47,680 nt of DNA, taken from NCBI GenBank assembly GCA_044226625.1, contig JBGAGQ010000053.1:1-47680 (forward strand), given 5' to 3'. A program made the translations under genes and the position numbers. Every line of letters begins with the position of its first letter. Within the stretch, counting starts at the first letter, position 1. Origin of the DNA: Thermoanaerobaculia bacterium. GTDB lineage: Bacteria; Acidobacteriota; Thermoanaerobaculia; Multivoradales; UBA5704. This document shows positions 7,591 through 37,642 of the stretch, piece after piece. The notes below the pieces were generated by a model. That model saw nothing but the letters and a program-made list of their open reading frames with translations. It was not told the DNA's origin and did not search any database.

Positions 7591-7605
7591 AACCAGTGAA
7601 CACTT

Positions 7606-8232: not shown

Positions 8233-8262
8233 GGCATCGAAGTCAGTCCAGCTGACACCAAG

Positions 8263-17964: not shown

Positions 17965-19389
17965 ATGCCGAAGGTGAAGCTGCCGGTGACCAACGCGGCA
18001 TGGGTAACCCTGCGAACGTTGAAGCGCCTGACGCAAGAAGAGGCGGGCGAGCGGACCGGCAGGCCGTCGCAGGTGATCGAGATCGAGAACGGCCGGAGGA
18101 AGCTGCCGCGTCCCGAGCTGGACGAGATGACCGGCAAGATCGATGTGCGGCCCTCTTCCGTGCCCGTGGCGCTCGCCCTGGCGGCCGAGGAGATGCCGGG
18201 GGGCGAGCCCGACCACCCCTGGGAAGCGACGCCGGAGGATCGCCTGGAAGTCGAGCGCGCCGCGGTCGAGGCATCGGCCACCGTACGCAAGCTCCTGCTC
18301 GCCGAGGCGCGCGCGGCGCGCCACGCGGCCGACCGCGCCGAAGCGGGGCGCCTTTGGGAGCTCCTGAAACCGCACAGGCCCGAGCGTCGGCGGGTGATGG
18401 CCCGTCTCCAAGACTTCGCCACCTGGGCGATGTCCGAGCGGCTCTGTATCGAAAGCCTCCGCGAGGCGCCGCGCAACCACCGCATCGCCCGGTCCCTCGC
18501 CGAGCTGGCGGTGGAGATCGCACGGCGGCTGCCGGTCCGGAAGGGATTCAGCGACCGGGTGGAGGGGTACGCTCAGGCACACTTGGGGAACGCGCTGCGG
18601 GTCGGGAACGATTTCGAGGAGGCGGATCGCGCCTTTTCCTCGGTGGCGAAGCTCTGGCCCGACCCGCAGTCGAGCGACGCCTGCCCGCTGGACGCGACGC
18701 TCATCCCAGACTTAGAAGCATCACTTCGTCGCGCGCAGCGCCGCTTTCCGCTAGCGCTCGATCGGATAGAACAAGCGCTCGCCCTGGCTGTCGACGATCC
18801 GACCCGTGGGCGCATCCTCCTGAAGAAGGCCGACGTTCTCGAGCACTCCGGCGACCCCGAGGGCGCGGTGGCGACGCTCCGGATCGCGCGCCCCCTGGTG
18901 GACCTGAACGCGGACGCTCGATTGAGCTGCGTTGCCCGATTCAATCTGGCGGTCAACCTGCTCCATCTCGGCTTGCCCTCGGAAGCCGAGCCACTGATCG
19001 CCGAGGTAAGAACGATGGCGATCGAGCAGGGAAACGACCTCGACCTCGTACGCCTTGGCTGGCTCTCCGGCCGGCTCGCAGCGGCGAAGGGGAATCGAGC
19101 CTCTGCGATCGCGGCGATCGAGGAGGCGGCGTTCCGCTTCTCCGAACGGGACATGGCGTTCGACGTCGCGCTCGCCATTCTCGACCTTGCGGCGCTCCTG
19201 CTCGAAGCGGGAGAAGCGCGGGAAGCGGCGCGGCGGGTCGCCGAGGTGCAGCCGACCTTTCACGTGCGCAACGTACAGCGCGAAGAGCTTGCGAGCCTCC
19301 TCTTGTTCCTCCGCGCCGTCGAAGCCGAAGTGGCGACCGCCGCGTTGGCGCGCGCGGCGGCCGAAGCCTGGCGGCTGTTCGGTGTTTGA
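17965..19389 (+). CDS. XRE-type HTH plus TPR-repeat protein (RRNPP-like architecture)
   Basis: RBS aaggaga at 17954-17960. LRTLKRLTQEEAGERTG...VIEIENGRRK is an XRE HTH. TPR units follow (AHLGNALRVGNDFEEADRAF; ILLKKADVLEHSGDPEGAVATL; FNLAVNLLHLG). Confidence 0.85.
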   Translation: MPKVKLPVTNAAWVTLRTLKRLTQEEAGERTGRPSQVIEIENGRRKLPRPELDEMTGKIDVRPSSVPVALALAAEEMPGGEPDHPWEATPEDRLEVERAAVEASATVRKLLLAEARAARHAADRAEAGRLWELLKPHRPERRRVMARLQDFATWAMSERLCIESLREAPRNHRIARSLAELAVEIARRLPVRKGFSDRVEGYAQAHLGNALRVGNDFEEADRAFSSVAKLWPDPQSSDACPLDATLIPDLEASLRRAQRRFPLALDRIEQALALAVDDPTRGRILLKKADVLEHSGDPEGAVATLRIARPLVDLNADARLSCVARFNLAVNLLHLGLPSEAEPLIAEVRTMAIEQGNDLDLVRLGWLSGRLAAAKGNRASAIAAIEEAAFRFSERDMAFDVALAILDLAALLLEAGEAREAARRVAEVQPTFHVRNVQREELASLLLFLRAVEAEVATAALARAAAEAWRLFGV

Positions 19390-19415
19390 GGCTCAACCGG
19401 GGATTGCTGAATGGG

Positions 19416-19751
19416 TCATTGCTGGCAATAGCCATTGGGATCGATGCTGCTGCATCCTGCATCGCTGAAGACCTGCGCTGGCGCGCTCGCCACCCCACAG
19501 CGGCCATGTGGGTCAAGGCTGCACCCCTCTTCGCCGAAGATCGGGGCTGGCACAGCTACCGTGCCGCACGGTCCATTGGGGTCGAGGCTGCCCCCCCCAT
19601 CCGTCCAGAACGCGGACAAGAGCGACCAGCCCCGAGCAAACAAATCGGTGAAATCCCATGTCGGCGGAGAGGCACTCGCGGGGATGGCGGACAAGAGCAA
19701 GACGACGGGCAGCGCAAGGGCGAGAGCGAGCGGACGCGTCCGAGGGTTCAT
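19416..19751 (-). CDS. Secreted 111-aa peptide with three DPxG repeats
   Basis: Signal MNPRTRPLALALALPVVLLLSAIPASA. Repeats DGGGSLDPNGPC, EEGCSLDPHGRC and DAGCSSIDPNGYC. Confidence 0.8.
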   Translation of the reverse strand: MNPRTRPLALALALPVVLLLSAIPASASPPTWDFTDLFARGWSLLSAFWTDGGGSLDPNGPCGTVAVPAPIFGEEGCSLDPHGRCGVASAPAQVFSDAGCSSIDPNGYCQQ

Positions 19752-19827
19752 GGCGGCAGGCTCCTGGTCGGCCCCGAGGCCTCCGGCCGGGATGGCCGGC
19801 GGCCCGGTGCGAAAGGGTTGGGGGGTT

Positions 19828-19841
19828 CCCAAATATTTGGG
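19828..19841. promoter_or_regulatory. Perfect 14-bp palindrome CCCAAATATTTGGG, candidate operator
   Basis: AT-rich palindrome in the 109-bp divergent gap between the peptide gene and the second HTH gene. Confidence 0.55.
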
Positions 19842-19860
19842 GTTCTTTCTCGGGGGGATC

Positions 19861-20733
19861 ATGGAACGGAAACCGGTTGGGAAGCGAGACGTGCGCGACG
19901 GCCTCGGCGGCGAGGCCCGGACGGAACCCGAGGCGCCGGGCGGGCACGGCGGCGACCTATCCCCCAAAGCGGAGTTCTCCGCGCTGTCCGTGCGCTTCCT
20001 CGATGCGGTCGCCGGACCGCGCCACGACCAGTTCGCGGCGGAGGCTGGGATCAGCCCCGCCCGGGCGAGCCTCTACCGGTACGGCCGCACCGTCCCACGG
20101 CCGGCGACGATGCTCGACCTCACCCGCAAGATGCGGCTGCCCCTCGCCTGGGTCGAAGCCGTGACGGCTGATGCCCTGTCCTTCCGAGGGCGGAGCCAGG
20201 CGCCGGCCGGGAGCGAACCTCTGGACGCCGTGGCCGACAACCTCTCCCGCCGTCTGGCCGGCCGGCTCGCTCCCCGACTCGCGGCGATCCGCGGCGAGGC
20301 GGCTCCGCCCCCGCCGTTGCAGCCTTCCCTCGACCGGGCGGCCGCGGACCGCACCGAAGCCACCGAGCGCTGGGCCGAAATCGAGCTCCTCACCGAGGCC
20401 GAACGGTCAATCCTGGTGCTCGAGATCTCCTCGTTCCGAACCTGGGCGTTCGTCGAGCGGCTCTGCCGGAAGAGCGCCGAGGCGGAATCGACCGCCGAGG
20501 CGCTCGCCCTCGCGAAGCTCGCCGTCCGCCTGTCGCGCCGTGTCGCGGCGAGCCCTGGGTTTCGCGACCGTATTTCGGGATTCGCCCTGCTCCATTCCGC
20601 CCGCGCCTACGAGCGCGCGGGTGACCCGTTCCGCGCCCGCGAGGCCCGGGCGAGAGGGATGAGGCTGTTCGCAGAGGGGCGGAGGGAGGATCCGGGGTTG
20701 CTGGACGAAGGGATCGACGGTACGCCGAGTTGA
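19861..20733 (+). CDS. Second XRE-HTH protein with truncated TPR region, paralogue of 17965..19389
   Basis: HTH HDQFAAEAGISPARASLYRYGRTVP. Shared block ADRTEATERW...FRTWAFVERLC..SAEA...ALALAKLAV versus ADRAEAGRLW...FATWAMSERLC.ES..EA...ARSLAELAV. Confidence 0.78.
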   Translation: MERKPVGKRDVRDGLGGEARTEPEAPGGHGGDLSPKAEFSALSVRFLDAVAGPRHDQFAAEAGISPARASLYRYGRTVPRPATMLDLTRKMRLPLAWVEAVTADALSFRGRSQAPAGSEPLDAVADNLSRRLAGRLAPRLAAIRGEAAPPPPLQPSLDRAAADRTEATERWAEIELLTEAERSILVLEISSFRTWAFVERLCRKSAEAESTAEALALAKLAVRLSRRVAASPGFRDRISGFALLHSARAYERAGDPFRAREARARGMRLFAEGRREDPGLLDEGIDGTPS

Positions 20734-20759: not shown

Positions 20760-21395
20760 CCGGGACGGCAGCCGCCCAGCCTACCCCAGGCCTTCGCCAG
20801 CTCAATTCCGAGACCGGCCCGTCCGCAACCTGGCACGGCCACGCCACCTCTTGGCTGGGCCAGCCCACCGCTGGGCGGAGCCGGCTCGGTTCCGTCCTAG
20901 GCCAGCCCGCCTCTAACCTGAGCCAGCCCACCTCCGGGCTCGGTCAGCCCACCTCATGGCTGGGTCCGCTCGGTTCTGTGTTCGACCGGCTCACCACCGG
21001 GCTGGGCCAGCTTACTTCTGGATTCGGCCGGGCCACCTCCCGGCGGGACCAGCTCACCTCTCAGCCGGGCCAGACGACTCCTGGGCTCGGACAACCCAGA
21101 GGTAAGCCCGACCGGACCACCACCCGGCTCGGCCAGCCCACCTCTCGGCTGAGCCAGCCGGGTGCTGCGCTCGGCCAGCCCACCTCTCGGCTGCGCCAGC
21201 CCGGTCCTGCGCCCGGCCAGCCCACCTCTCGGCTGCGCCAGCCCGGATCTGCGCTCGGTCAGCCCACCTCTCGGCTGCGCCAGCCCGGTGCTGCGCTCGG
21301 CCAGCCCACCCGTCCGCTGCGCCAGCCCGGTGCTGCGCTCGGCCAGCCCACCTCCCGGCGGAGCCAGCCCAGTACGGAGCTGCGCCAGATCAGCC
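20760..21395 (+). repeat. Tandem array of about 30 degenerate 21-bp units with a 42-bp higher-order period at the right end
   Basis: Units such as ggccagcccacctctcggctg and cgccagcccggtgctgcgctc. One + frame reads heptads GQPTSRL/RQPGAAL. Confidence 0.9.
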
Positions 21396-21755
21396 CCGGC
21401 GCGGCGGTCTTTTCGTCCGGCGCGAAGCTCGCCGACGGCGAACCGAGGGCTCGGCTGGAGTCGCCTCTCGGCCCCTTCGAGAAGAGCGGCAGCAAACCGC
21501 GTCCCTCGGGTGATGCCTCTTCGGGATAACTTTTTATTTTAACCCGGATCGACCCGAGTTTCAAAAGGCCCTTTTGGGCCAAGCCTGTTTCGTACGGTTC
21601 GCGGCGTCGGAAAGCGGCACCCACCGGAGCCTCGAGCTCGCCGTTCATGACTTGCGGCTGGCGCTCAAGTCGCCCCCTGGTTCCCGTCGGTAACCGCCCG
21701 ATCTGCCCCGAACGGAATGTTCCGTCTGGGCGACCTCAAGAAGGAGGCCTCACCG

Positions 21756-22097
21756 ATGAGCCCCAACACCACGACCCCGTCTGTCTCGCCGACGTCCCCC
21801 GCCCCGGCCCCGACTCTGAAATCCGAGCGCATTCAGCTTCGGCTCCGGTCCCTGGGTTGGATCGTCTCGACCAACCGGCGCCTGATCTCGCGGCGTTTCC
21901 AGTTCGCGACGCAGAAGGAAGCGATGGCCTTCCTCAACCTCGCGCTGGCGCTGGCCGAAAGCTCCCAGGCGTCGCGCCGGCGTCCCCCGGCATTTCAGAT
22001 CCGGGGTTCGCAAGTGCGGATGTCCATCTCGTCTTGCGGCCCGGCGCTCGCGAAGGCCGAGTTGACTCTCGCACGGTCGGTCAGCCTGCTGGGCTGA
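21756..22097 (+). CDS. Pterin-4a-carbinolamine dehydratase (PCD/DCoH)-fold protein, catalytic HHP motif absent
   Basis: RBS aaggagg at 21741-21747. L..ERIQ..L..LGW...LISRRFQF....A.AF.....LAE...V...ELTLAR follows the PCD pattern, but RRRPP replaces HHP. Confidence 0.7.
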   Translation: MSPNTTTPSVSPTSPAPAPTLKSERIQLRLRSLGWIVSTNRRLISRRFQFATQKEAMAFLNLALALAESSQASRRRPPAFQIRGSQVRMSISSCGPALAKAELTLARSVSLLG

Positions 22098-22162
22098 TCG
22101 ATTCACGATCGAAAGCGAACCGCGGGCCGCATTCCGCGTCCCGAACCCATGAGGAGAAAGCC

Positions 22163-22549
22163 GTGCAAGACACTTCGTACGCGGACAAAATCAACAACTG
22201 GCAGATCACCGCCCAGAACCTCTTGGAAGTTCAGTCCTCCATCCCCGGATTCGATCCGCCGTTCAACGACTTCAAGCAGAAGGTCGACGATCTGCGGGCA
22301 ACCCACGACAAGGTCCAGATGCTGCGCGGCGCCTTGCACGAGGCGGTGGTTCTCCGCCGAGCGCTGGATCAGGAGACCCGCCGGTCGGCCCGCCGCCTGG
22401 CGGCCGTCACACGGGGACATCTCGGATTCGACAACCCGAAGCTCGTGAGCTTCAACTTCCGCTCGGAGGATTCCACGCGGCGGGGCAAGAAGGCGAAAGC
22501 TACCGTGGCATCCATGATCCCCCCCGAAGCGGGACCGGAGCAGCCGTAA
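22163..22549 (+). CDS. 128-aa helical/coiled-coil hypothetical protein with basic tail
   Basis: RBS gaggag and GTG start. MQDTSYADKINNWQ...long amphipathic helices...GFDNPKLVSFNF...RRGKKAK. Coding-like codon usage. Confidence 0.8.
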   Translation: MQDTSYADKINNWQITAQNLLEVQSSIPGFDPPFNDFKQKVDDLRATHDKVQMLRGALHEAVVLRRALDQETRRSARRLAAVTRGHLGFDNPKLVSFNFRSEDSTRRGKKAKATVASMIPPEAGPEQP

Positions 22550-22617
22550 CCGATGCTCCCGTCGCGCGCTGACGTGCCCCGGGGGGCGCTCGGTGGGTGG
22601 CTGAGAAGGCCAGAGAA

Positions 22618-22649
22618 GGGGTGAGGAGGCGCCGCCTCACCCCGACTTT
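22618..22649 (+). terminator. GC hairpin, possible terminator after the 22163..22549 gene
   Basis: ggggtgagg-N8-cctcacccc followed by a weak T tract (gacttt). Confidence 0.35.
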
Positions 22650-22823
22650 CCCGGCGAAAGTGACATCGAAACGCGAAAAATCACGCCCTTCTTGACACCT
22701 GCAACATAGGCGTGCGATGGTATCGGCAGGACGGTACTTATTATGCATAGGGACATACGACCCGAGTGAACCCGAGAAGACGGCATCCGATTCGGGCGGC
22801 ATGTGTTTCCCAGGAGGTGCGCC

Positions 22824-23297
22824 TTGGCGAAGACGTTCAAGATCACTCTGAGAGGATCGCTTCTCGACGCAGTCGAGGAGTTGGCGGCCAATGACGGAGT
22901 GACGGTCAGCATGGCGATCGTCCGCGTCGTCCTGCTCTGGAATCTGGCCGGCTCCAATCGGCCTTTACCCGCCGACCTGGAGATCCTGGACGACGGTTTG
23001 ACCCTGGCGCTGGACGAAGGGATTCGCAGCTACCTACGATCGGTGGACGCATTCGCTCGGTCGCAAAAGATCCTTTCCGAGCTTCCCGCGGTGCTTCAGG
23101 CGACGCTCCCCTTCGTGTCGCTCCTCTCCGACCTGGACGTCCTGGGCGACGCGGTATCGCACCTACCGGGTTTGATCGACGAGGTCCGCCAAGGACGGCG
23201 CATCGGAGCGAAACTCCTCCGCCAGGCCGAGGCTCACGGGCTCGTCTTTCGCTACGACCGGAGCGGCAAGACGCCAGCTCCCCAAAACGACCCCTAG
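22824..23297 (+). CDS. Protein with N-terminal ribbon-helix-helix (CopG-like) DNA-binding domain
   Basis: RBS aggaggt at 22812-22818 and TTG start. KTFKITLRGSLLDAVEELAANDGVTVSMAIVRVV fits the RHH pattern. Confidence 0.65.
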   Translation: MAKTFKITLRGSLLDAVEELAANDGVTVSMAIVRVVLLWNLAGSNRPLPADLEILDDGLTLALDEGIRSYLRSVDAFARSQKILSELPAVLQATLPFVSLLSDLDVLGDAVSHLPGLIDEVRQGRRIGAKLLRQAEAHGLVFRYDRSGKTPAPQNDP

Positions 23298-23327
23298 CTA
23301 GATGCCCTGATTGCGCGTCCCGAGAGA

Positions 23328-24020
23328 TTACGCCGCGAAAGCGGCCGGTGCCGCTTCGAAGAGCCGGCGAGGAATCTCTTCGCCGGCCTCTTCGTCCAAG
23401 CCTGCGGCATCGGGGACCGCGAGAGCCGGAGAAACCGGCCCGGCCGGCGACCGCCAAGGCGGCGTCAGGCCGAGCACACATTCCTCCAAAGCCTTTGCCG
23501 TCTCGAGCGCCAGCACGAGGCGCTGGACCCGCCACATCGCTTCGACCAAGGGCTGCAGCAGGTCTTCCTCCTCGCCCAGGGCTCGCAAGCGCTCGATCGC
23601 GGGCGCCGCAAGACGGATCGCGGTCCGCAACTGGCTACGGTTGACGCGGCGCACCGATCGCGAGACCTGCTGCATCGTGGGGTCGACCGGACTCTGCCCC
23701 GGGGCGTCCGCCGCCTCGACCTCCTCGTTGCGCTGCCGACGCACCGCCGCCTTGAGGTCCGCCACGTCGACACCGAACAGGGCCGCAACGTGGGCCTGAC
23801 TCCGGCAATGGCTTTCCAGAGCCTGCCGGTTCGCCGTGGACGGGCGGATCGCCTGGCAGCACGGCTGACGCTCCCGTGGCGAGGGCTGCCAGAGCCCTTC
23901 GACCCACTCCCCCTCCGGTTGCGTCCTGCGAGCGGCTCGGGACACGAACTCCGCGAGCGCGAGGCGCAAGCGCCCCACGGGAAGCTCGCTCTCTCTGGAC
24001 TCCTTACGCTTCGTACGCAT
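23328..24020 (-). CDS. Hypothetical protein with CC...HC...H putative metal-binding domain and helical C-terminus
   Basis: PEGEWVEGLWQPSPRERQPCCQAIRPS...LESHCRSQAHVAALFGV. RBS-like gaggaag upstream. Confidence 0.7.
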   Translation of the reverse strand: MRTKRKESRESELPVGRLRLALAEFVSRAARRTQPEGEWVEGLWQPSPRERQPCCQAIRPSTANRQALESHCRSQAHVAALFGVDVADLKAAVRRQRNEEVEAADAPGQSPVDPTMQQVSRSVRRVNRSQLRTAIRLAAPAIERLRALGEEEDLLQPLVEAMWRVQRLVLALETAKALEECVLGLTPPWRSPAGPVSPALAVPDAAGLDEEAGEEIPRRLFEAAPAAFAA

Positions 24021-24240
24021 GATCTTCCTCGAAAAGTTCTTAGGACACCCACATAAGAGAGTGCATCAAAACAGCCGAAGAGGGACTCAATTTTCCCTCA
24101 AAGCGAAACAAGTGTCTCCACTCTAGAACAAACGGGCAAAAACGTGAATTTACGCAGCACCCGAGGAAGCCGGGGCCGCGGAGCGGCTCGCAGCTCCGAA
24201 ATCTATGGCGGGATCGGCCCGGTTCTTGTACGGTCCTCGA

Positions 24241-27200
24241 ATGGCAATAGCTAAGTCATCTCAAGGCTTCCGAAGGACCCTCTCTGCGCTCTTGGGCATG
24301 AACGATCCTGGGGCCTTCGAGGAACTGGTTGCGCGCCTCTTATCCCAATTGATCGGAGCGCCCATCCGGAGAGCCCACTCCGGTTCGCAGCACGGCAAGG
24401 ACGCTCTGTCCGACGACGGCACCATCGCCATCGAATGCAAGCTCTATCGCGACAAGACCCGTCTCGACACACGAGCCCTGATTGCTGAACTGGCGGAAGC
24501 ACGAGCCAATCATGCCGACCTCCAACTCTGGGTCCTTGCCTCCACCAAGACAATCGGCGCGGACGCGAAGGAGAAGCTCACCCAAGAGGCTCAGAAGATG
24601 GCGCTTGGGGTGCTCGTCCTGGATGCCGCTGCCGCTCGGCATCGCCTCGGCGACATCCCGGCGATTTCCGCTTTGTGCTCGACCGACGTCCATTCGACCC
24701 TGGCTAACCTCGCCCGCCTCACCGCGGGCGAACGGCGAGCCGTTCGAAGCGAGCTCGAAGCGATCCAGCGCGCTCCAGGTTTCGAGTCCTGGCGGAGCTG
24801 GCTGATCGAGGAAATCCGGGACCGATTGCCCATTTGGCGATTCGCGGTCTCACGCCGGAACCGGACTCTCGCCGAGCGAATTCGGAGAGCAGCTTTCGAC
24901 TTCGGGACGGAGTACGACGCATCGAAAGCGGTGCCCCGGCGGATACGAGCGGAGCTGGAAGCGTGGTTGCAGAAAGCGATCACAGAACCCTGCGAGAACA
25001 CTCCCCTTCTCGCCGTGGTCAAGGGCGAGCGTTACGACGGCAAGACCTGGCTCACATACCAGTGGCTCCTCGAAATCGCGGCAGGATCAACGTTGCCTAT
25101 CTTCTTCGTGAGCTCGGCCCGTGGTTCTCAGTCCGATCGAGACTTGCTGCAATACATCCATGAAGATTTCGCCCCGGCCTTCGGTGGCGCTGATCCTTAC
25201 ACCGTCGGCTCCTATGTCAGGCATTTTCGAAATGCCAACTCGGGAAGCGGGCCCTGGGCCTTGGTGATCCTCGACGGCCTGAACGAATATGAGAATTTGG
25301 GCTGGCGAAGACACCTGGCTACCGCTCTGAGCTTGGGCGATCCAGAGTATCGACCGGCCGCGGTGATCGCCACCGTACGCGAGCGGTCCTGGCAAAGTTT
25401 GAAGAAACACCTGCCGAGAGAGGCCGGCTCGAATTTGGCGCCATTCATGCCTCCGGCATACTCCAGAGATTGGGGGGGCGGGACGGGCGGAGGAGATCTC
25501 TCCAACCTACCAAGCCGCGACTCGGCGAAGCGTGAGTTAAACCTTGCTGAATTTTCCCTCGGAACGTTCGACGAGGAAGAACTTCAGACGGCCCTTACGC
25601 GGCTGGGTCTGTCGCCCGACTTCCTGTCGGCGCTCTCCAGGAGCGCTCTGGAGCTCGCCCACCGGCCCCGCTATCTCGGCCTCATCGCGAAGTACTTCGA
25701 CCAATTGAACCAATACTCCGCCGTGACACCCGAGGTTCTCCACTGGCTTGACCTTGGCGACAAGGTCGGAAGAACCCGAGAAGGACTCAAAGACTGGGGA
25801 GCTCAGAAGCTCGGGGAATTCCTAAGAAACCTGGCGAGGAGATGGCGAGCCAGGAGTTTTCTCGACTTGACGAGTGTCCGAGAGGCCCTCGGGAAGCTGA
25901 CGACCTCGGTCGATGCGGTCTTGTCCGACCTTGAGTCCGAAGGTGTCCTCCTGAGCGACGGCCGACGGTTTGCAGTCGAGCCGGAGAGGTTGGCCATGGG
26001 CTACGGCCTATTCCTTAGAGATGCGCTTTTCGAGGCTGCCACGCAGAAGCGGAATCTGGACGAAGCGCTCAGCGACCTCCTCGCGCCGCTTGTCGATGTA
26101 GACGAAACCGTAGACGCCTTACGCGCCGCCGCAACGTTGGCGCTTATCGAAGGCGAGGGCTCGTTCCTACAAGGCGACGCCCCTAAAGAACCCACTGAAG
26201 TGCTTGATACCCTGCTCGTCCGATGGATCAATTCTCGCAATCTTCGGACGAAGGACCTGGAAGCCATCTATCAATTGCGGCGCCTCCTGTGGCGACCGCT
26301 TCTTCGCCTAAACCCGGAGCTTTGGCGAGAATCAGAACGAGATTGCCGCGGGAGAGAGCTCGCTCTCATGGTCTTCGGCGAGCTCGTTGAAGCGGATGGC
26401 GAGGCCAAAGCGAGCCTGCGCAGATCCGTTCGCGACTGGTTCCGCCAGATTCCAGCCAAGGGTGGCTGGTGGAGCAGAGCGAAAGCTCGCACAGAGCTTG
26501 GCCATGTTGACGATTCCGTAGCGGCGGATGCGGTTCACGCTCGCTTAAGTCACAAGATCAGCGAACCGGAAGCTCAGTCACTGGGCATTTCGATTTCCGA
26601 GAATCTTGACGTCTTGAGCCTTCAATCCTTGGGCCTCTATCTGGCTGGCAGAGCCCCCGGCCTCATCGATCCCGACGACCTTCTTTCCTTTGTGGCCAGC
26701 CGCTTCATTTTGGAAGAACCGATCGACTCGGGAGACTGCTGGGTGATCCGCCGTGTTCTGGAAAGGACCCCTACCTCATGGTTCCAAGATGCCACCATGA
26801 AAGAGGTCGGTCCGACAAACTTGTATGCGAGATCTCTTTTGCAGCTCGTCGAGATCTCAGAGCGTGCCGACCTCGAAGCTTTAAAGCCACGACTACGCTC
26901 CTTGGTGCCGCACGAAAGGCGGCGGCGTTTCTCGACTTGGCCGACTCGTAAGAATGTGCATTCTTTACTCCAGGGGCACATCGAAGACGGGGCTGATGTG
27001 CGTCCCTTCGCGGAGTCAGTCCGGGGAATTGTTATCGACCCAGAACTCCCGAAGCCACCGAATCGCTTAGGGCAAGCGATCGCACGGCGTGTCGCGAACG
27101 CTTGCACGAAGCGAAGACTTGCATATCGGCTTGATCTTCATGATCTGGAACAACTTCTCCCGGCCTTAGCAGCTTGGGCACCAAGAGTCGGCCGAGAGAT

Positions 27201-28659
27201 CGTTAGGAAGACCCTGCAAAATCTACCCGCCGATGTTCTCCACAAGAAGCGGCCCCCGTTGATGGAGCTGCGGGGGCATGCGGCGCTTGCCTCCGGCGCG
27301 GCCCGCAGGGCTCTCCAGGAAACACTCACACTGTCCTACCGTCAGGGGAAAGACGGATGGGTTCAGCAAAGGGAGATCACCTTGGCCCTTCTCCCGGGCT
27401 CGGGAGTCGAAGAAACGCTGAGGTTGTTGGTCGACATGGGAGATTTCGAACATCGAGAAACCTTTGAACTCGGGGGCGCACTCGCAGAAGCCACCGACTT
27501 GAGGAGGCTTGGGGTCGCGCTGGTCAGAGCAAGGAATCCTGAGCGCAAGAGGCGGATTCGAATTCTCCTAGCTTTCGCTGCCAGATCGTCAAATGCCATC
27601 AGCGCTGCCTTGAGCACCATTGATCTCCCCCCTGGCGAGATCAGGGCGATAACCGACACCCTTCCCTCGGAGGAAAGGATAAGCCACCCTCAAGAGTACC
27701 TGGACGAGATCACAGCGAGCCTTAAGAAAATTACAAGTGCGCAGGCGGCTCAGCAGGGAATGTGGAGCCACCGCCACCTTCCGGCAAAGATGGTCAAGCA
27801 TCTAGATATGGATCGAGTTTCAGAATGGCTTCCGCTGCTGGTACCTCGTGACGGGATTGCCCAGCCCCGACATTGCGGTCTGATTCTCCCAACTTTCGAA
27901 TGGTGCCTCGATCACTCAGACTCGCGCGCGGAAAGTCTTTGGCCGTTCGTCAGTCCATTCCAGCGGCAAAGATTTTCGATCGGTATCCTGAGACTCTCCG
28001 TAGTCGGCGTGCCCTGGGCGCTCCATCTGCTCAATCGACCGAGTGCAGACGACCAAATGTCGCTACGCTTCTTGAGAAATCTGATTCTCGATGCTCGAAA
28101 TGACCTTGAGATCTGCGAAATCTCTCTCGGAGCATGCTTCCAGGATCGACGGCGCCTAAAGGAGCTTGCCCAAGAGCTGGCCATCGATCAAAAGGCGGAG
28201 ATGCGTGCGCGGGGAGTGGCGATTCTCGGCTGGCTCGTGGAAGGGGCCGAGCTACTCAGGAAGATCCAGAAAAGAGATCCCTCCCGCTGGGTCCGAGGCC
28301 AGGCTGAGATTGCCCTTGATCGACATGTTGTCGACTCCTGGGCACATCACTGGCTGGATCAATTCTTCGCGGCAAGAACTGCGACCGGGCGCTGGGCGGC
28401 TGGGCGGCTATTCCTCGAATCTGCGGATCGCCGAGTCGACAGTTGGGCCTGGAAGAAGGTTCGGAGCAAGAAATGTCGGAAGCGGGTTCGGGGAGAGGCC
28501 TTTCTTCTCCTACGAGCTGCTCAGGATCGATCCAAGAAAGACGACTCAAAGCTAAAGGATCACTTCCTCGGATCGAACGTCAAGGCGCTGGACAGCACTG
28601 TCGATCCTTGGCGGCGTGACGACGAATGGGTTCTCGCCCACTATGGCCGGGGCGATTGA
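24241..28659 (+). CDS. Large protein: PD-(D/E)xK (Mrr-like) nuclease, STAND/NACHT-like P-loop NTPase and long helical-repeat region; putative antiphage defence protein
   Basis: Nuclease motif FEELV...GSQHGKD...IAIECKLY. Walker A GERYDGKT at 25024-25047 and Walker B LVILDGLNE. HEAT-like C-terminus (RARGVAILGWL...DPSRWVRGQA). The start could be 24205. Confidence 0.82.
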   Translation: MAIAKSSQGFRRTLSALLGMNDPGAFEELVARLLSQLIGAPIRRAHSGSQHGKDALSDDGTIAIECKLYRDKTRLDTRALIAELAEARANHADLQLWVLASTKTIGADAKEKLTQEAQKMALGVLVLDAAAARHRLGDIPAISALCSTDVHSTLANLARLTAGERRAVRSELEAIQRAPGFESWRSWLIEEIRDRLPIWRFAVSRRNRTLAERIRRAAFDFGTEYDASKAVPRRIRAELEAWLQKAITEPCENTPLLAVVKGERYDGKTWLTYQWLLEIAAGSTLPIFFVSSARGSQSDRDLLQYIHEDFAPAFGGADPYTVGSYVRHFRNANSGSGPWALVILDGLNEYENLGWRRHLATALSLGDPEYRPAAVIATVRERSWQSLKKHLPREAGSNLAPFMPPAYSRDWGGGTGGGDLSNLPSRDSAKRELNLAEFSLGTFDEEELQTALTRLGLSPDFLSALSRSALELAHRPRYLGLIAKYFDQLNQYSAVTPEVLHWLDLGDKVGRTREGLKDWGAQKLGEFLRNLARRWRARSFLDLTSVREALGKLTTSVDAVLSDLESEGVLLSDGRRFAVEPERLAMGYGLFLRDALFEAATQKRNLDEALSDLLAPLVDVDETVDALRAAATLALIEGEGSFLQGDAPKEPTEVLDTLLVRWINSRNLRTKDLEAIYQLRRLLWRPLLRLNPELWRESERDCRGRELALMVFGELVEADGEAKASLRRSVRDWFRQIPAKGGWWSRAKARTELGHVDDSVAADAVHARLSHKISEPEAQSLGISISENLDVLSLQSLGLYLAGRAPGLIDPDDLLSFVASRFILEEPIDSGDCWVIRRVLERTPTSWFQDATMKEVGPTNLYARSLLQLVEISERADLEALKPRLRSLVPHERRRRFSTWPTRKNVHSLLQGHIEDGADVRPFAESVRGIVIDPELPKPPNRLGQAIARRVANACTKRRLAYRLDLHDLEQLLPALAAWAPRVGREIVRKTLQNLPADVLHKKRPPLMELRGHAALASGAARRALQETLTLSYRQGKDGWVQQREITLALLPGSGVEETLRLLVDMGDFEHRETFELGGALAEATDLRRLGVALVRARNPERKRRIRILLAFAARSSNAISAALSTIDLPPGEIRAITDTLPSEERISHPQEYLDEITASLKKITSAQAAQQGMWSHRHLPAKMVKHLDMDRVSEWLPLLVPRDGIAQPRHCGLILPTFEWCLDHSDSRAESLWPFVSPFQRQRFSIGILRLSVVGVPWALHLLNRPSADDQMSLRFLRNLILDARNDLEICEISLGACFQDRRRLKELAQELAIDQKAEMRARGVAILGWLVEGAELLRKIQKRDPSRWVRGQAEIALDRHVVDSWAHHWLDQFFAARTATGRWAAGRLFLESADRRVDSWAWKKVRSKKCRKRVRGEAFLLLRAAQDRSKKDDSKLKDHFLGSNVKALDSTVDPWRRDDEWVLAHYGRGD

Positions 28660-28670
28660 ATGCGAAGGCC

Positions 28671-28863
28671 CCCTACCCCACCAGCCCCCTGAGCATCCCC
28701 CACAACCGCGCCACATCCGCCCGTTCGGTCGCCTCGGCGCCGATCGAGACGCGGACCATCCAGCGTCCGTCGAGCACCGCGGGGGTGAGATAGGTCTCGC
28801 CGGAGGCGTTCGCGCGCTCGGCCCAGTCGAGGGTGTGGCGGTCGAGGGCTTCGCCTTCGAGGC
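28671..28863 (-). repeat. Duplicated 3' end (about 62 codons plus stop) of the decarboxylase gene; direct repeat of 30610..30802
   Basis: 193 bp with 10 mismatches by manual alignment and only 2 amino-acid changes. Confidence 0.95.
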
Positions 28864-28941
28864 ATAGGGTGGGGTGATTACTTCGCTGGGTGAGAACAGC
28901 GGGACTGTCCATCCTTATCTTGTCGCCAATAAAAGCCTGAC

Positions 28942-28970
28942 TTGACTCACTTACGAACATTCACTAGAAT
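28942..28970 (+). promoter_or_regulatory. Sigma70-type promoter for the ATPase cassette
   Basis: TTGACT-N17-TAGAAT in an AT-rich patch 74 bp upstream of the ATG at 29045. Confidence 0.7.
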
Positions 28971-29044
28971 TAAGAATAATTTTAGCCTCACCTACCGAAG
29001 CTTTTATCGCCGCCCACTATAAGAATGTCGCGAGGGCAGAATAA

Positions 29045-30544
29045 ATGTCAAGAAATATTGACTTCTCAAAGGTAAACTGGGGGCCCGATGATGCCAGAGG
29101 AGACCACAACCTCAACTCCTATTTCGTAGAGGTGGCCAACTATGAAGGGCTGATCGACGGATCGAAACGACTAGTTATTGGAAGAAAGGGAACCGGGAAG
29201 ACTGCCATTTGCGAGCACCTGAGACTGACAGCGGCTTCCACCCACAGTTCATTTGAATCTAGCTTCTCTCTCAGAAACTTTCCCCTCTCGTATGTCCGCG
29301 ACCTCAGAGACAAGTCTCTCAGAGACAAGTCGCAATTCGTGCCGGTATGGTCGTTCCTCTTGGCGCTAGAACTTTCTCGCCTCGTGCTCGAAGACAACTC
29401 AGCTGGCCCGCTCGAAGTTGTTGATGAGCTATCAAGGTTTTTGAAAATGAACTTTCCGAAGGACGCAGTCGGTCTCACCGAGACATTGACGCACCTGCGA
29501 AGACGGGAATCGAAGATTGCAATTTTGTCGCAATGGATTGGCAAGGAACAGTCGTCAGGCTCGGCTTTCGAGACTGTCGGCGGTGTCCACTTTCATCAAG
29601 TGACCTCCACGCTCGTAGAGAAACTTTGCAAGATTCACAGTGAATCACTCTTCTACATTCTGCTTGACGAACTCGACGAGGGCTATCACGCTGGCGACAA
29701 GAGTCTACGCCTGCTTCTCCTATCCCTTCTGCGGGCGGCCTCCGACCTGTTTGTCAAAACCAAGGACTCAGGACTCAAGGTGCGCCCTATAACCGTATTG
29801 CGCTCCGACATCTTTGATGAACTAGATGACAATGATCTGAACAAATATCATGACTACATCATCAGACTCCACTGGACCGGGCGACCCAATTCTCAATTTA
29901 GCCTGAGAAAGATAGTCAATGCGAGAATCCTTGCCTCTGGGTTAGATGTGGATTCCGAAGACCCCTGGCTTAGCTGCGTTGACGGAACAAATTCCACTGC
30001 GACAAAACTCTGGTGGTACTTGGTACATCGCACCCACCAACGACCACGTGACATCATTAAGTTCCTTAAGCTTTGCGGCACTCGCTGCCGACAGACATCA
30101 CTCCACGCGGAAGCAATCTACGATGCAGAGCGAGAATACTCAGATTGGCTCTATCATGAAATTGGCAATGAGGTTCATAGTATTTTGTCTCCTTGGCGGG
30201 AAGCCATGCTCTGTATTTCCCAACTTGGTGAAATTTTTCCACGCACGGGCGCGCTCCGGAAGAAACTTGGAGAAAACCCCGAAATCAAGTCCTGGATTTC
30301 CGAGACCGGCAAATCCCCCGACCATGTACTTTCAGCGCTTTACAGAGTCAGCGCGATTGGGCACATGAACCGGGCAGGCCGCTTCATTTTTCGATATCAG
30401 GACGAGTCAATCGATGACTGGGATCCCGACGGTAAGCTCTTTATCCACCAGGGCCTACACAAGAAGTTGCGCCTGCGCACCGTCGGGAAGGAATCTCTAC
30501 AAATCCAAGCCACCCAATCGGCCATCGAAGGTTCCCAAGGCTAA
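29045..30544 (+). CDS. Stand-alone P-loop ATPase (Sll1717/FunZ-like), low-GC acquired gene
   Basis: WGPDDARGD..L..YFV, Walker A IGRKGTGKT, Walker B LLDELDE, LRSDI and RPRDII motifs. Visibly AT-richer than its flanks. Confidence 0.82.
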   Translation: MSRNIDFSKVNWGPDDARGDHNLNSYFVEVANYEGLIDGSKRLVIGRKGTGKTAICEHLRLTAASTHSSFESSFSLRNFPLSYVRDLRDKSLRDKSQFVPVWSFLLALELSRLVLEDNSAGPLEVVDELSRFLKMNFPKDAVGLTETLTHLRRRESKIAILSQWIGKEQSSGSAFETVGGVHFHQVTSTLVEKLCKIHSESLFYILLDELDEGYHAGDKSLRLLLLSLLRAASDLFVKTKDSGLKVRPITVLRSDIFDELDDNDLNKYHDYIIRLHWTGRPNSQFSLRKIVNARILASGLDVDSEDPWLSCVDGTNSTATKLWWYLVHRTHQRPRDIIKFLKLCGTRCRQTSLHAEAIYDAEREYSDWLYHEIGNEVHSILSPWREAMLCISQLGEIFPRTGALRKKLGENPEIKSWISETGKSPDHVLSALYRVSAIGHMNRAGRFIFRYQDESIDDWDPDGKLFIHQGLHKKLRLRTVGKESLQIQATQSAIEGSQG

Positions 30545-30611
30545 GCGGTCTGGGAGCGTCTATGATCTGGGATGCCTTGTAGCGACCGCTCGGGCGCAGT
30601 GATTCGTGCCC

Positions 30612-32024
30612 CTACCCCACAAGCCCCCTGAGCATCCCCCACAACCGCGCCACGTCTCCCCGTTCCGTCGCCTCGGCGCCGATCGAGACGCGGACCATCC
30701 AACGTCCGTCGAGCACTGCGGGGGTGAGGTAGGTTTCGCCGGAGGCGTTCGCGCGCTCGGCCCAGTTGAGGGTGTGGCGGTCGAGGGCTTCGCCTTCGAG
30801 GCCCGGGGGCTCGTGGCGGAGGCAGACGGTTTGGAGCGCCACGGGGGCGAGGACGCGCCAGTGTGGTGTCGCGGCGACCTGTTCCGCGAGCCAACGGGCG
30901 TTTTCGAGGTCGCGGTGGAGGCGGGCTCGCAGGGCTTCGAGGCCCTGCTCGCGCAGGTGGAACCAGAGCTTCAGGGCGCGGAAGCGGCGACCGAGCGGGA
31001 TGCCCCAATCGCGGAGGTTTTTCACCTGATCGTCGACCGCGGAGCGCAGGTAGCTCGGCCGGGTGGACATGACTCGGATCAGATGGTCGGGGTCGCGGAC
31101 GTAGTAGAGCGAGCAGTCGAAGGCGACACCGAGCCACTTGTGGACGTTCCAGACCAGGGAGTCCGCTCCTTCGATCCCCTGCCAGAGCGGCCGGCATTCG
31201 GGCAGGATCATCGCCGAGCCGGCCATCGCCGCGTCGACGTGGAACCACAGGGCGTGCCTGCGCGCGATCTCGGCGATCCGCTCGATCGGATCGAAAGCCG
31301 TGGTCGTGGTGGTCCCCGTCGTGGCGACGACCGCGCAGGGCCTATGCCCCGCGGCGAGATCGGCCTCGACCGCCGCCAGAAGCGCGTCCGGCCGCATCGC
31401 AAAGGCCTCGTCCACGTCGACCGCACGAACGTTTTCGCGGCCGAAACCGGCGAGGAGCGCCGCTTTCTCGACCGAGCTGTGGCTGTGCCCGGAGACGTAG
31501 ACGCGCAGGGCCTTGCCCTCCGCTTGGAGGCCGCCCCGGGCGAGGCCGAATTCGGTGGAGCGTTCGCGGGCGCAGATCAGCGCGATCAGCGAGCTGGTCG
31601 ACGCGGTGTCCTGGATCACCCCGCTCCAGGCGTCCGACAGTCCGACCGCCTGGCGCATCCAGTCCGTCGCGACCTCTTCGATCTCGGTGAGCGCCGGGCT
31701 CGACTGCCACGACAGGCCGAGCACGCCGAGCCCGGTCGAGAGGAAATCGCCGAGCACGCTCGCGAGCGACCCGTTCGAGGGGAAGTAGCCGAAGAAGCTC
31801 GGATGCTGCCAGAGCGAAAGGCCGGGAACGATCAGGCGATCGACGTCGGCGAGGATCTCAGCGAACGGCTCCGGCGCCTCGGGCGGGCTCGCCGGCAGCT
31901 TCGCCTTGATCTCCCCGGGGGCCGTCCCGGCCATCACCGGCCGGCGGTCTCTCAGGCCGGCTCGATAGTCGGCGATCCAGTCGACCAACTCGTGGCCGAA
32001 ACGGCGGAACTCCTCCGGGGTCAT
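30612..32024 (-). CDS. PLP-dependent group II (aromatic-L-amino-acid/DOPA-type) decarboxylase
   Basis: MTPEEFRRFGHELVDWIADY, WQHPSFFGYFP, SPALTEIE, HSSVEKA, WFHVDAAMAG, NVHKW (PLP lysine) and LGRRFRALKLW. Confidence 0.93.
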   Translation of the reverse strand: MTPEEFRRFGHELVDWIADYRAGLRDRRPVMAGTAPGEIKAKLPASPPEAPEPFAEILADVDRLIVPGLSLWQHPSFFGYFPSNGSLASVLGDFLSTGLGVLGLSWQSSPALTEIEEVATDWMRQAVGLSDAWSGVIQDTASTSSLIALICARERSTEFGLARGGLQAEGKALRVYVSGHSHSSVEKAALLAGFGRENVRAVDVDEAFAMRPDALLAAVEADLAAGHRPCAVVATTGTTTTTAFDPIERIAEIARRHALWFHVDAAMAGSAMILPECRPLWQGIEGADSLVWNVHKWLGVAFDCSLYYVRDPDHLIRVMSTRPSYLRSAVDDQVKNLRDWGIPLGRRFRALKLWFHLREQGLEALRARLHRDLENARWLAEQVAATPHWRVLAPVALQTVCLRHEPPGLEGEALDRHTLNWAERANASGETYLTPAVLDGRWMVRVSIGAEATERGDVARLWGMLRGLVG

Positions 32025-32047
32025 ACCGGTTTCCGCGCCGATTCCGA

Positions 32048-33247
32048 TCAGTGGCCGGGCGGCTGCTCCGGCGCCTGCGGCGCCGGCGGGGTCGCGTCGG
32101 GCGAGATGGCCGCCGCGGCCGCCGCGGCGGCGGCCGCCGCATCGGGCACGTTCCGCGCGGGAGCGTCGGCGGCCTCCAGCGGATCCTCCGGCGGCACGCC
32201 GATCAGGCGGCGGAAATTCGCCGCTTCGGCGGGCGGACGGGCGACGATCAGGGAATTCTTCTCGAGCTCTTGCTCGTACTGGGCGAAACGGTCGCGGAAC
32301 AGCCGGTTTCGCTCGCGCGCCTCGATCTCGGCCTGGACCTCGGGGAACGGCCGGACGTAGGACGGCCGCCGTTCGACCATCTGCAGCAGGTGCGTACCTC
32401 CCCGCCCTTCGGTCGGCTCGCTCATCGCACCGGGCGCGAGGCTCCAGGAGGCCTGGACGATGCCCGGGTCGAGATCGCTCTGCGATAGCCAACCGAGGTC
32501 GACGACGGTGCCGCCGAGCCCTTGGTCGACGAAGGGCTTCGCGGCTTCTTCGAAGGTCTTGCCGGCGGCGACGGCGGTGCGGATCTGGTTCGCGATCCGC
32601 TCGCGCTCGGCGGCGCTCGCCGTCTTGTCGGACAGGAGGACGGCGTCGCGCAGGTGGACCTGCTCGGGCACGCGGAAGAGGTCGACGTTCTTCTGGTAGT
32701 AGCGCCGGAGGTCGTCTTCCTCGAGCCGGATCTTCCCCTGTACCTCGCGGCCGACCAGCTCGCGCACGCGCAGGTTCTTCTTGAGGTTGTCGCGCAACTC
32801 TTTTTCCGTCATACCGCTCTGGGCAAGCGCGCCGCGGAACTGCTCGTCGGTGGTCAGGTTGAAATTGTCCCGCATCTGTTGGACCGCGGCGTCGATGTCC
32901 TGCTCGGGGGCGGGGATGTTCAACTGGTCCGCGCGAGATTGGAGCAGGAGGTCCTCGTAGAGGTTTTTGTAGACGACTTCGCCCGCGGCGGCGAGCTCCT
33001 GCTCGCGCTCGGCCGGATCGAGGTTCTTGCGGCCGATCTCGCGGCGCAGGTCGTCCCGTCCGGCCTCGTAGTCGTGCAGGGTGGCGATCCGGTCGTTGAT
33101 GCGGAGGATGATCTTTGCGGCGACTTCCCCCGAGGCGGGCACGGCGGCTCCCGCGAGCAGCAGGAGCGGGAGCACCATCCCGAGGCGGCGAGCGGAGCGC
33201 TCCAGCTTCCCAAGGGTGAGCTCAGCGGTGAGCGGTCTGCGGATCAT
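32048..33247 (-). CDS. SurA-like periplasmic chaperone / parvulin peptidyl-prolyl isomerase
   Basis: SurA N-domain (IILRINDRIATLHD...FRGALAQSGMT) plus a rotamase domain (FEEAAK...DLGWL...SEP). Start uncertain. Confidence 0.85.
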   Translation of the reverse strand: MIRRPLTAELTLGKLERSARRLGMVLPLLLLAGAAVPASGEVAAKIILRINDRIATLHDYEAGRDDLRREIGRKNLDPAEREQELAAAGEVVYKNLYEDLLLQSRADQLNIPAPEQDIDAAVQQMRDNFNLTTDEQFRGALAQSGMTEKELRDNLKKNLRVRELVGREVQGKIRLEEDDLRRYYQKNVDLFRVPEQVHLRDAVLLSDKTASAAERERIANQIRTAVAAGKTFEEAAKPFVDQGLGGTVVDLGWLSQSDLDPGIVQASWSLAPGAMSEPTEGRGGTHLLQMVERRPSYVRPFPEVQAEIEARERNRLFRDRFAQYEQELEKNSLIVARPPAEAANFRRLIGVPPEDPLEAADAPARNVPDAAAAAAAAAAAISPDATPPAPQAPEQPPGH

Positions 33248-34145
33248 GGTAGGCGCCTCGATATTCAAAGGGGAGATTTCGCGCATAGATCTCGACATTG
33301 TAACGATGCCGCGCTTCGGCGACCAGCTCGACCAGGCGCACGTCCGCGCGCTCGCGGCGAAGGCGACGGCGGATCTCTTTGCTCGCCCGCTCGAGAGGCA
33401 TCGTCTCGGCGGGGAACCGCTCGGTGACCTGGAAGATATGGAAGCCGTAGTCGGCCGGGACGACCGGGCTCACCTCGCCCGGCTGGAGTCGGAAGATGAC
33501 GTCGGCGAACGCCGCCGGCAGGTCGGCCGCGGACAGTTCCCCCTGATCGCCGCCGCGCTCCGAGCTCGGATCGCGCGAATACTTGCGCGCAATGGCGGCG
33601 AAGTCGGCTCCCGACGAGAGATCCCCGAGCGCGCGCTCCGCCTCGCTCCGCCGCTCGACCAGCACCTGGCGCAGGCGAACCCGCTCGGGCCGCGCGAACT
33701 CCGAGCCGTGGTCGCGGTAGTAGGCGGCGATCTCGGCGTCGGTCGGCTCGGGGACCTCGACCGCGAGCAGGGCGTCGATTCCCCGCCGCCCCCGACGCCC
33801 GTCCGGCTCCGCCGCCCTCGATTCGGCCGCGCGCTTGGGCACGAGATTCCTGTCGGCCGCCAACCGCTCGAGCAAGCGCTCGTCCAGGAACTGGTCGAAC
33901 AGCGCCGAGAGCACGTCGCTCGCGAGCAGGCCCGCCGAGCTGCCCACCACCTCGGAGACGTAGACCCGGAATTGCGGATAGCGCAGCTCCTGCTCGCCGA
34001 TCCGCGCCACGGCGTCGGGCGCGGGGGGAGGGGTCCGGCGGCAGGCGACGAGCGCCAGGAGGCCGAGGCAAGCGGCGACGAGCGCGCGCCGGGAGCGACG
34101 GCCTCTCCGGGGCGGAGGCGGGAGCGGGGGTCCGAGAGGGAGCAT
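33222..34145 (-). CDS. Parvulin-type peptidyl-prolyl isomerase lipoprotein (PrsA/PpiC-like)
   Basis: Lipobox LLALVA-C. PERVRLRQVLV...GADFAAIARKYSRDPS...GGDQG...GEVSPVV..DYGFHIF. Only the C-terminal part of the listed 902-aa ORF is real. Confidence 0.9.
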   Translation of the reverse strand: MLPLGPPLPPPPRRGRRSRRALVAACLGLLALVACRRTPPPAPDAVARIGEQELRYPQFRVYVSEVVGSSAGLLASDVLSALFDQFLDERLLERLAADRNLVPKRAAESRAAEPDGRRGRRGIDALLAVEVPEPTDAEIAAYYRDHGSEFARPERVRLRQVLVERRSEAERALGDLSSGADFAAIARKYSRDPSSERGGDQGELSAADLPAAFADVIFRLQPGEVSPVVPADYGFHIFQVTERFPAETMPLERASKEIRRRLRRERADVRLVELVAEARHRYNVEIYARNLPFEYRGAYHDPQTAHR

Positions 34146-34162
34146 GGATAGAGAAGGGTGGC

Positions 34163-37642
<3,480 letters not shown>

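Follow-up and report, generated by a model that had tools for sequence, protein, structure and literature searches.

This study concerns a single gene on a 47,680-nucleotide stretch of DNA from a Thermoanaerobaculia bacterium (contig JBGAGQ010000053.1 of assembly GCA_044226625.1, positions 1 to 47,680), which is called the window below. The gene lies at 24205..28659 on the forward strand, and its product, P0001, joins an Mrr-like nuclease, a NACHT-like STAND NTPase, and a long helical-repeat region in one polypeptide of 1484 aa. With a probability of about 0.7, P0001 is a stand-alone NLR-like antiphage receptor of the NACHT-type STAND kind, equipped with a nuclease effector. By analogy, it would likely be a single-gene NLR-like abortive-infection nuclease, a rare member of an established class. 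Three features lead to the proposed defence role: the architecture of the protein, its patchy and insertion-like distribution, and the fact that 2 of 7 homologue loci lie in defence-island surroundings.

The open reading frame (ORF) runs uninterrupted for 1484 codons, with the stop codon within the coordinates given, and the gene occurs only once in the genome it comes from. Where does the protein begin? An in-frame ATG at 24241, 12 codons downstream of 24205, would yield 1472 aa; a first-pass annotation of this DNA had started the gene there, and so had described the same ORF. The gene call in the searched collection, P0002 (1353 aa), begins at M132 (window 24598), and the nuclease domain is thereby dropped. 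A start upstream of M132 is considered right because residues 25-135 are the best conserved part of the protein, and because the first 130 codons evolve at the low dN/dS described below. Automated annotation of this family may therefore hide its effector. A scan for promoters and terminators around the gene gave counts not above those of shuffled sequence.

A word-indexed search of 5.8 billion proteins, in which 8000 candidates were scored, returned 28 proteins at E<=0.001: P0002, which is P0001 itself, 22 near homologues (P0003-P0024), and five distant relatives (P0025-P0029). The near homologues (E<=3.5e-116, 29-48% identity) comprise 21 full-length proteins of 1469-1753 aa, which span 29-50% identity when the alignment is taken into account, and the partial P0009 (1036 aa), while the distant relatives are 23-25% identical and have only the N-terminal ~700 aa in common with P0001. 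Sharing of the N-terminal part alone would, by analogy, represent sensor-like variability, and we count it for the defence-receptor reading. P0001 and its 21 full-length homologues were aligned; P0002 (self), P0009 (partial), and P0025-P0029 were excluded from this alignment, to which the statements on conservation below refer.

The domain anatomy follows a simple order, with all parts encoded on the forward strand. First comes the Mrr-like PD-(D/E)xK nuclease domain (residues about 25-135, 24277..24609), recognized by Pfam Mrr_cat and by a conserved motif, DALSDDGTIAIECK, at 24400-24441. The predicted catalytic residues are D66 (24400-24402) and E77-x-K79 (24433-24441). Mrr_cat matches residues 34-132 with an E of 2e-4 and 21.9 bits against a cutoff of 21; Mrr_cat_2 covers the same domain well below its cutoff (E 0.22, 11.9 bits). 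These were the only Pfam matches of P0001, with no NACHT (PF05729) match at E<=1. A helical linker follows (residues 136-255, 24610..24969), defined by the alignment and by the model, in which it forms helices with a pLDDT of about 90; W196, P209, W211, and N219 are invariant in it. The P-loop nucleotide-binding domain (NBD; residues 256-400, 24970..25404) contains the Walker A motif GERYDGKT at 25024-25047, the Walker B motif LVILDGLNEY at 25261-25290, whose core is D357-G-L-N360-E361, and a sensor-1-like T390-x-R392. After it stands a G/S/P-rich insertion of ~45 aa (residues about 401-445, 25405..25539) that is specific to P0001, being a gap in the other 21 alignment rows; it separates the HD1 lid from the NBD strand that follows sensor 1, and is predicted to be disordered (pLDDT <50 at model residues 396-427). 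The HD1 lid, winged-helix, and HD2-like domains of the STAND module (residues 446-672, 25540..26220), assigned from the alignment and the model, include a PRY[FL] motif with invariant P488-R489. The remainder, residues 673-1484 (26221..28656), is a C-terminal alpha-solenoid, the putative sensor, assigned from the model and from generic HEAT/ARM matches.

The residues invariant in all 22 sequences include D66 and K79 of the nuclease, G274, R276, G279, K280, and T281 of Walker A, D357, G358, N360, E361, and Y362 of Walker B, and R392, besides the proline-arginine pair and the linker positions mentioned above. E77 is nearly invariant. As read from the aligned sequences, the conservation of these motifs is far above chance expectation. 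The first-pass annotation had listed an N-terminal PD-(D/E)xK motif, a Walker B motif LDGLNE, and a long helical C-terminal region with a HEAT-like end, and all three are present, the helical region with a length of about 860 aa. It had also called the Walker A motif unusual: GERYDGKT is indeed there, but it fits the canonical GxxxxGKT, and only its inner R, Y, and D are out of the ordinary, being peculiar to the close family.

Identity is not spread evenly along the protein. Mean pairwise values are highest over residues 25-135 (0.50), reach 0.42 in the NBD, fall to the lowest level, 0.30, over residues 901-1200 (26905-27804, the most variable stretch of the solenoid), and rise again to 0.41 at the C-terminal HEAT-like end. 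This pattern fits a variable ligand surface placed between structural or autoinhibitory parts. The gene family is under purifying selection: by the Nei-Gojobori method, dN/dS is 0.26 between the homologues at loci L007 and L005, and 0.22 between those at L002 and L003, with values of 0.08-0.33 in every region of both pairs and the same range for the first 130, nuclease-encoding, codons.

The predicted structure gives a closer view of the module. A model of residues 13-672 (660 aa), folded with a 26-row alignment, reached a pLDDT of 83.5 and a pTM of 0.82. When it was compared with the Protein Data Bank (PDB) by Foldseek, the two chains of Avs4 ranked first (8dgf_B, E 7.2e-10, 663 columns, TMq 0.36) and second (8dgf_A, E 3.3e-9; 663-691 columns for the two chains), in alignments that cover the entire 660-aa model; NLRP14, NLRP9, NOD2, and NLRP3 came after them. 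Re-ranking by VIA-align placed animal NACHT NLRs on top, in alignments over model residues 196-660, with NLRC4 (8fw2_A) at Z 15.9, rmsd 6.8, and 358 aligned residues, NOD2 (5irl) and NLRP3 (7vtp_A) both at Z 15.0, and Avs5 at Z 11.3; Avs4 was absent from the best 50 VIA-align rows, although it holds the first Foldseek rank. From these NLR and Avs4 matches, the module is an NLR-type NBD-HD1-WHD-HD2 STAND unit that follows the nuclease and the helical linker, and the predicted structure thus has the architecture of the solved NACHT NLRs. A predicted homodimer of the nuclease (residues 20-145, two copies) scored 0.00, which is uninformative either way.

As for the C-terminal part, an 872-aa model is entirely a helical solenoid (pLDDT 84.9, pTM 0.86). 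Its Foldseek matches are generic HEAT/ARM solenoids only, such as SF3B1 and importins, with E values of 7.6e-5 or weaker and TM of 0.15-0.25. VIA-align against 48,161 structures gave as the best match the HEAT repeats of CAP-G (Z 9.6, rmsd 3.6, 113 residues), a Z within the range common for helical repeats; the aligned model residues 639-762 correspond to about 1251-1374 of the protein (27955-28326), and mark the HEAT-like repeats. No Avs sensor, that of 8dgf included, is among the matches listed for this model, which neither excludes a similarity nor proves a new fold. The effector-STAND-sensor layout proposed in the first-pass annotation is thus borne out by structure prediction, and its statement that the sensor matches no named type holds for both structural searches.

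Which characterized systems does P0001 resemble most? Avs4 carries an Mrr-like PD-(D/E)xK nuclease, and the same kind of domain opens P0001 (Mrr_cat, D66, E77-x-K79), where the nuclease and STAND half also adopts an Avs4-like predicted fold. Avs4, solved as PDB 8dgf in complex with the portal of phage PhiV-1, is likewise a single polypeptide of ~1500 aa with the same order of Mrr-like nuclease, central STAND NTPase, and large C-terminal helical-repeat sensor. However, no relationship to it was detected at the sequence level, with no PADLOC match at E<=1 and a best E of 0.09 for a profile search of PDB sequences, and by VIA-align the NTPase of P0001 looks closer to the NACHT NLRs. The latter (NLRC4, NOD2, NLRP3) have the same NBD-HD1-WHD-HD2 fold, with 349-364 residues aligned, and a C-terminal repeat sensor, but identity is only 12-16%, and they carry CARD or PYD and leucine-rich repeats where P0001 has a nuclease and HEAT-like repeats.

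An Mrr-like head on an ATPase also brings to mind restriction. Modification-dependent restriction enzymes have Mrr_cat as their catalytic domain, and P0001 could be an NTP-dependent type IV-like enzyme whose head cuts modified or foreign DNA, the ATPase and the solenoid serving DNA recognition or regulation. The presence of this domain favors such an enzyme, as does the type I restriction-modification (R-M) system that adjoins the L002 homologue. Yet the ATPase, with its winged-helix lid, is a switch of the STAND/NACHT type and not a translocase, Pfam recognizes no DNA-binding domain in P0001, and the architecture matches Avs4, which senses a protein; we hold a restriction enzyme to be decidedly unlikely.

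The other close parallel to a NACHT-type receptor with a nuclease is found in bNACHT25 and bNACHT32 (clade 6), which, as far as the available part of their description goes, have the same N-terminal PD-(D/E)xK/Mrr-like DNase, NACHT module, and C-terminal helical region. According to that part (PMC12169576), phage protection by the two proteins requires the PD-(D/E)xK nuclease activity, and phage sensing needs the host DnaJ. By the same description, they possess an NCH1 C-terminal domain and DnaJ-mediated sensing, whereas P0001 has a ~810-aa solenoid with a HEAT-like end, and its Walker B motif reads DGLNE against the D[GAS]hDE of NACHT proteins; they are set apart from P0001 by description and not by sequence. 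The C-terminal 1000 aa of P0001 gave no Pfam match at E<=1, with a set in which the NCAB2 model is present and the presence of an NCH1 model is unconfirmed. P0001 would, by analogy, work like Avs4 and bNACHT25; membership of either named family is not claimed.

Beyond its near homologues, the N-terminal module belongs to a much larger group. From the window and 11 locus pieces, a profile of this module was built (A4, 581 positions). Of 1.84 billion cluster representatives searched with it, 1720 match at E<=1e-3; the count falls to 1170 at E<=1e-10 and to 737 at E<=1e-30. The close family, with A4 scores >515 bits, amounts to about 27 clusters at 50% identity; below them the scores step down to <=340 bits, where a large sister group begins (240-340 bits). 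The sister proteins are mostly of 1540-1595 aa, and A4 covers their whole N-terminal module. The superfamily thus counts at least 737 clusters at 50% identity, with the nuclease, the LDG[LI]NE Walker B, and the PRY motif in common. A comparison of 10 close, 87 sister, and 5 far sequences found QxGxD...ExK[RK]Y, LDG[LI]N[EQ], and PR[YLF] in all three groups, while Walker A reads G[EDN]R[YF]DGKTW in the close family versus mostly GEEGDGKTW in the sister group. The sister group has relatives on plasmids, for example WP_228167503.1, a Sphingobium RefSeq protein of 1512 aa that A4 matches with 183.8 bits over positions 3-581. Its members (~1540-1595 aa) have the same QxGxD...ExK[RK]Y, GxxxDGKTW, LDG[LI]NE, and PRY[FL] motifs as P0001, but GEEGDGKT in place of GERYDGKT and C-terminal halves that cannot be aligned, and they are uncharacterized too.

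What name does such a group deserve? A tblastn search with a sister representative found 12 plasmid records, and in four Sphingobium plasmids the gene is annotated as a 'NACHT domain-containing protein'. The Pfam NACHT model, whose cutoff is 26.7 bits, scores below it in P0026 (19.8), P0027 (23.8), P0081 (24.2), and P0099 (17.4), and above it in the sister protein P0123 (27.1). Among 13 sister proteins tested, NACHT was matched in three (one above the gathering score) and Mrr_cat in four. The NTPase part of PADLOC Avs2 models was matched by 2 of 18 proteins tested and Avs4 models by none of these 18; PADLOC likewise gave no Avs4 match for 23 relatives, among them 13 sister members (PADLOC has Avs2 models, as these matches show, and Avs4 models belong to it as well). 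The NACHT signature with which these proteins have to be compared comes from Kibby et al. (10.1101/2022.07.19.500537), where, in the part available, bacterial NACHT defence proteins are defined, restriction endonuclease effectors among them, with a Walker B signature D[GAS]hDE. Of this signature, P0001 retains the small residue that follows D, as well as the later of the two acidic positions. Given the NACHT-linked relatives and this partial signature, we name P0001 a NACHT-like STAND protein of a distinct LDGxNE lineage.

The distribution of the gene is that of an accessory element. Among 185,579 species genomes, nine close-family loci were found, in seven Thermoanaerobaculia, one Acidobacteriota, and one Myxococcaceae metagenome-assembled genomes (MAGs). 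With P0001 as the query, 5 of 41 related genomes, its own included, matched at E<=0.001; G006 was the only one to do so among the other seven genomes of the same genus, with a C-terminal remnant alone. In a sample of 301 genomes from across the phylum, three matched the A4 profile at E<=1e-20.

DNA comparison of the window with five genomes of the same genus shows how the gene sits in the chromosome. The region 30612-36500 is syntenic in all five, at 75-82% identity, and on the left the insertion is bounded by a flank (23723..24148) for which conserved counterparts exist in G001 and G006. Between the flanks, G001 has 789 bp and G006 has 998 bp, the latter including the family remnant (L014 1501-1965, on G006:C222, syntenic with window 24149-30611), which corresponds to residues 1323-1484 of P0001 at 30% identity (E 6.5e-13). 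This diverged remnant between the same flanks suggests gene turnover at the spot. The GC content is 0.58-0.60 across the gene and 0.69-0.71 in the surrounding core. Since the gene is missing between the flanks in relatives of the same genus and has a lower GC content, it is a 4.5-kb accessory insertion at a variable spot.

Directly after the stop codon, at the right edge of the insertion, lies one copy of a 194-nt direct repeat (28670..28863), which is a copy of the 3' end of a pyridoxal phosphate (PLP)-decarboxylase gene and is 95% identical to the second copy, the decarboxylase 3' end itself at 30609-30802. The two copies bracket a 1.94-kb segment with a GC content of 0.50 and an ATPase gene at 29045-30544 (+), which encodes a 499-aa Sll1717-family P-loop ATPase. 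A separate, later insertion of the ATPase is indicated by this arrangement, and the segment has the look of a small cassette that entered the same hotspot and duplicated its target on insertion. Could the two genes nevertheless form one system? They are adjacent, on the same strand, and both in a low-GC region, and the ATPase matches its family model (NF047389, 262.8 bits). A joint system was rejected on the direct-repeat structure, because the ATPase lies in its own bracketed segment; its GC content also differs from that of the main gene (0.50 versus 0.58-0.60), and a related neighbour occurs at none of 8 homologue loci. We consider a two-gene system very improbable, and take the antiphage receptor to be organized as a single gene.

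In line with this organization, no conserved neighbour exists across the window and eight homologue loci, where only the closely related pair L005 and L007 is syntenic. For seven of these loci, 76 flanking ORFs, chosen by GC content at third codon positions, were searched with Pfam, and 57 of them, together with P0030, with PADLOC. Clear defence or mobile islands emerged at 2 of 7. At L002 (53-9841 and 14591-24274), one side carries two integrase ORFs, a Replic_Relax relaxase, and a type IV secretion system (T4SS) coupling/HerA-like ATPase, and the other a Dsr1-like gene (E 1.5e-25) and the type I R-M system, with a methyltransferase at E 4.5e-156; the L002 homologue apparently resides on an integrative or mobilizable element. 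At L008, from a Thermoanaerobaculia MAG, an integrase and a second gene, of 1516 aa and with a NACHT C-terminal alpha/beta 2 (NCAB2) match, precede the homologue, and two CHAT proteases follow it, in a conflict-type gene cluster (5258-9808 (+), 15233-17632 (+), 21330-24398 (-)). VapBC, integrase, ADP-ribosyltransferase, and AAA+RloB genes are the neighbours of the plasmid relative.

Upstream of the gene, between about 16800 and 24000, several stretches (16809-17540, 17907-20709, 22123-22643, and 23741-23977 among them) match many different contigs in each genome of the same genus at 65-75% identity; they belong to multi-copy gene families, and the majority of their ORFs match neither Pfam nor NCBIfam. 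Two Rhs-repeat proteins, of 614 aa (5886-7730 (-), RHS_repeat E 1.4e-9) and 1570 aa (8841-13553 (-), E 2.8e-33), are encoded ~10 kb upstream in a stretch of lower GC content (0.56-0.64), with small ORFs of unassigned function between and after them.

Several observations weigh against P0001 being a NACHT-type antiphage receptor, and they have to be set beside the above. PADLOC (PADLOC-DB 2.0.0) matched P0001 to 0 families at E<=1; with this result, its placement among the defence STANDs rests on fold and architecture. The signature D[GAS]hDE, as far as the available part of its source gives it, is not strictly followed, as N360 replaces the first acidic residue in DGLNE; NTP hydrolysis could differ from that of NACHT proteins. 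No match appeared in a tblastn search of P0001 against plasmid and phage records, and on viral contigs the close-family query gave 127 pattern matches, none of them confirmed. No tRNA is found in the window, and no integrase or transposase beside the gene. The host belongs to an uncultured lineage. A query with the sensor only (residues 700-1484) retrieved 10 matches, all of the same family, the three shorter ones being N-terminal truncations; none of the 10 thus carries another effector on this sensor, and no effector swap is seen. At 5 of 7 homologue loci (L001, L004, L005, L007, and L009) the neighbours are mostly housekeeping genes, with no clear defence genes. Finally, the homologues at L005 (9698-13390 / 13195-14388) and L009 (4391-8728 / 8566-8874) are split across two frames near the C-terminus, which may reflect decay or a frameshift, or an assembly error.

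Two alternatives draw on these points. The housekeeping neighbourhoods would suit a STAND protein outside defence, such as a DNA-processing factor or an ATPase in signalling or regulation, with a cellular partner bound by the solenoid and a nuclease domain that serves repair, recombination, or DNA binding. Set against it, the gene is an insertion without a counterpart in close relatives and is very rare in the phylum, the catalytic residues of the nuclease are invariant, and the fusion of an Mrr-type effector with a STAND module is, in the available part of Lee et al. (PMC13581612), a criterion for defence clades; a cellular role of this kind appears unlikely. The second alternative, an inactive, decaying remnant without present function, would account for the split frames at L005 and L009, for the remnant that G006 has alone at the same locus, and for a gene call that, by beginning at M132, leaves the nuclease domain out. 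It is hardly credible for a window frame of 1484 uninterrupted codons with all catalytic motifs intact, and relatives show dN/dS of 0.22-0.26.

If the antiphage-receptor reading is right, how would P0001 act? By analogy with Avs4 and bNACHT25, from which its trigger, its oligomerization, and its cutting of DNA are proposed, the C-terminal alpha-solenoid and an ADP-bound NACHT-like module would hold the resting protein monomeric and autoinhibited. A protein from the phage, or a host protein that the phage has altered, would then bind the solenoid, residues 901-1200 being the most likely contact surface. Binding would lead to nucleotide exchange and to oligomerization via the NBD-HD1-WHD module, and the oligomer would join the Mrr-like PD-(D/E)xK domains into an active nuclease that cuts DNA indiscriminately and aborts the infection.

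How new is this protein? The first-pass annotation had presented it as a candidate new sensor. What stands is that it belongs to a rare, unnamed branch with no named match: searches of NCBIfam and of PDB sequences with the whole of P0001 found nothing, and against all PDB chain sequences A4 reached no better than E 0.09, the match being an unrelated protein. What does not stand is novelty of the class, as nuclease-NACHT-repeat antiphage proteins are already established (bNACHT25/32, Avs4). Among the titles listed in a literature search, none is on this family, which is not evidence of its being unpublished. The closest survey, as far as its available part goes, is that of Lee et al. (Nature 2026, PMC13581612), with 589 STAND clades, of which 198 are defence-associated, 684 sensor clusters, and triggers for Avs7, Avs8, and Avs10-21; in the supplementary files available from it, clade tables excepted, neither Thermoanaerobaculia nor Acidobacteriota, Mrr, or any of the contig prefixes appears. 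A bolder proposal, which we put forward as doubtful, is that the LDG[LI]NE Mrr-NACHT-solenoid superfamily is an uncharacterized Avs/bNACHT lineage in which the solenoid of the Thermoanaerobaculia branch is structurally new, its phage- or host-derived trigger falls outside those of Avs1-24, and the Asn in place of Asp in Walker B marks a modified nucleotide cycle.

The gain in knowledge is incremental, because nuclease-STAND-repeat receptors and the logic of their activation are already established. Even so, if the prediction is true, P0001 would be a pattern-recognition receptor from Acidobacteriota-type soil bacteria, in which phage defence is almost unstudied, and it would represent a sizeable superfamily that PADLOC-DB 2.0.0 does not detect and whose Walker B variant, LDGxNE, is diagnostic. 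No solved structure corresponds to the sensor of this branch, and knowledge of its trigger would widen the map of the phage components that NLR-like proteins sense.

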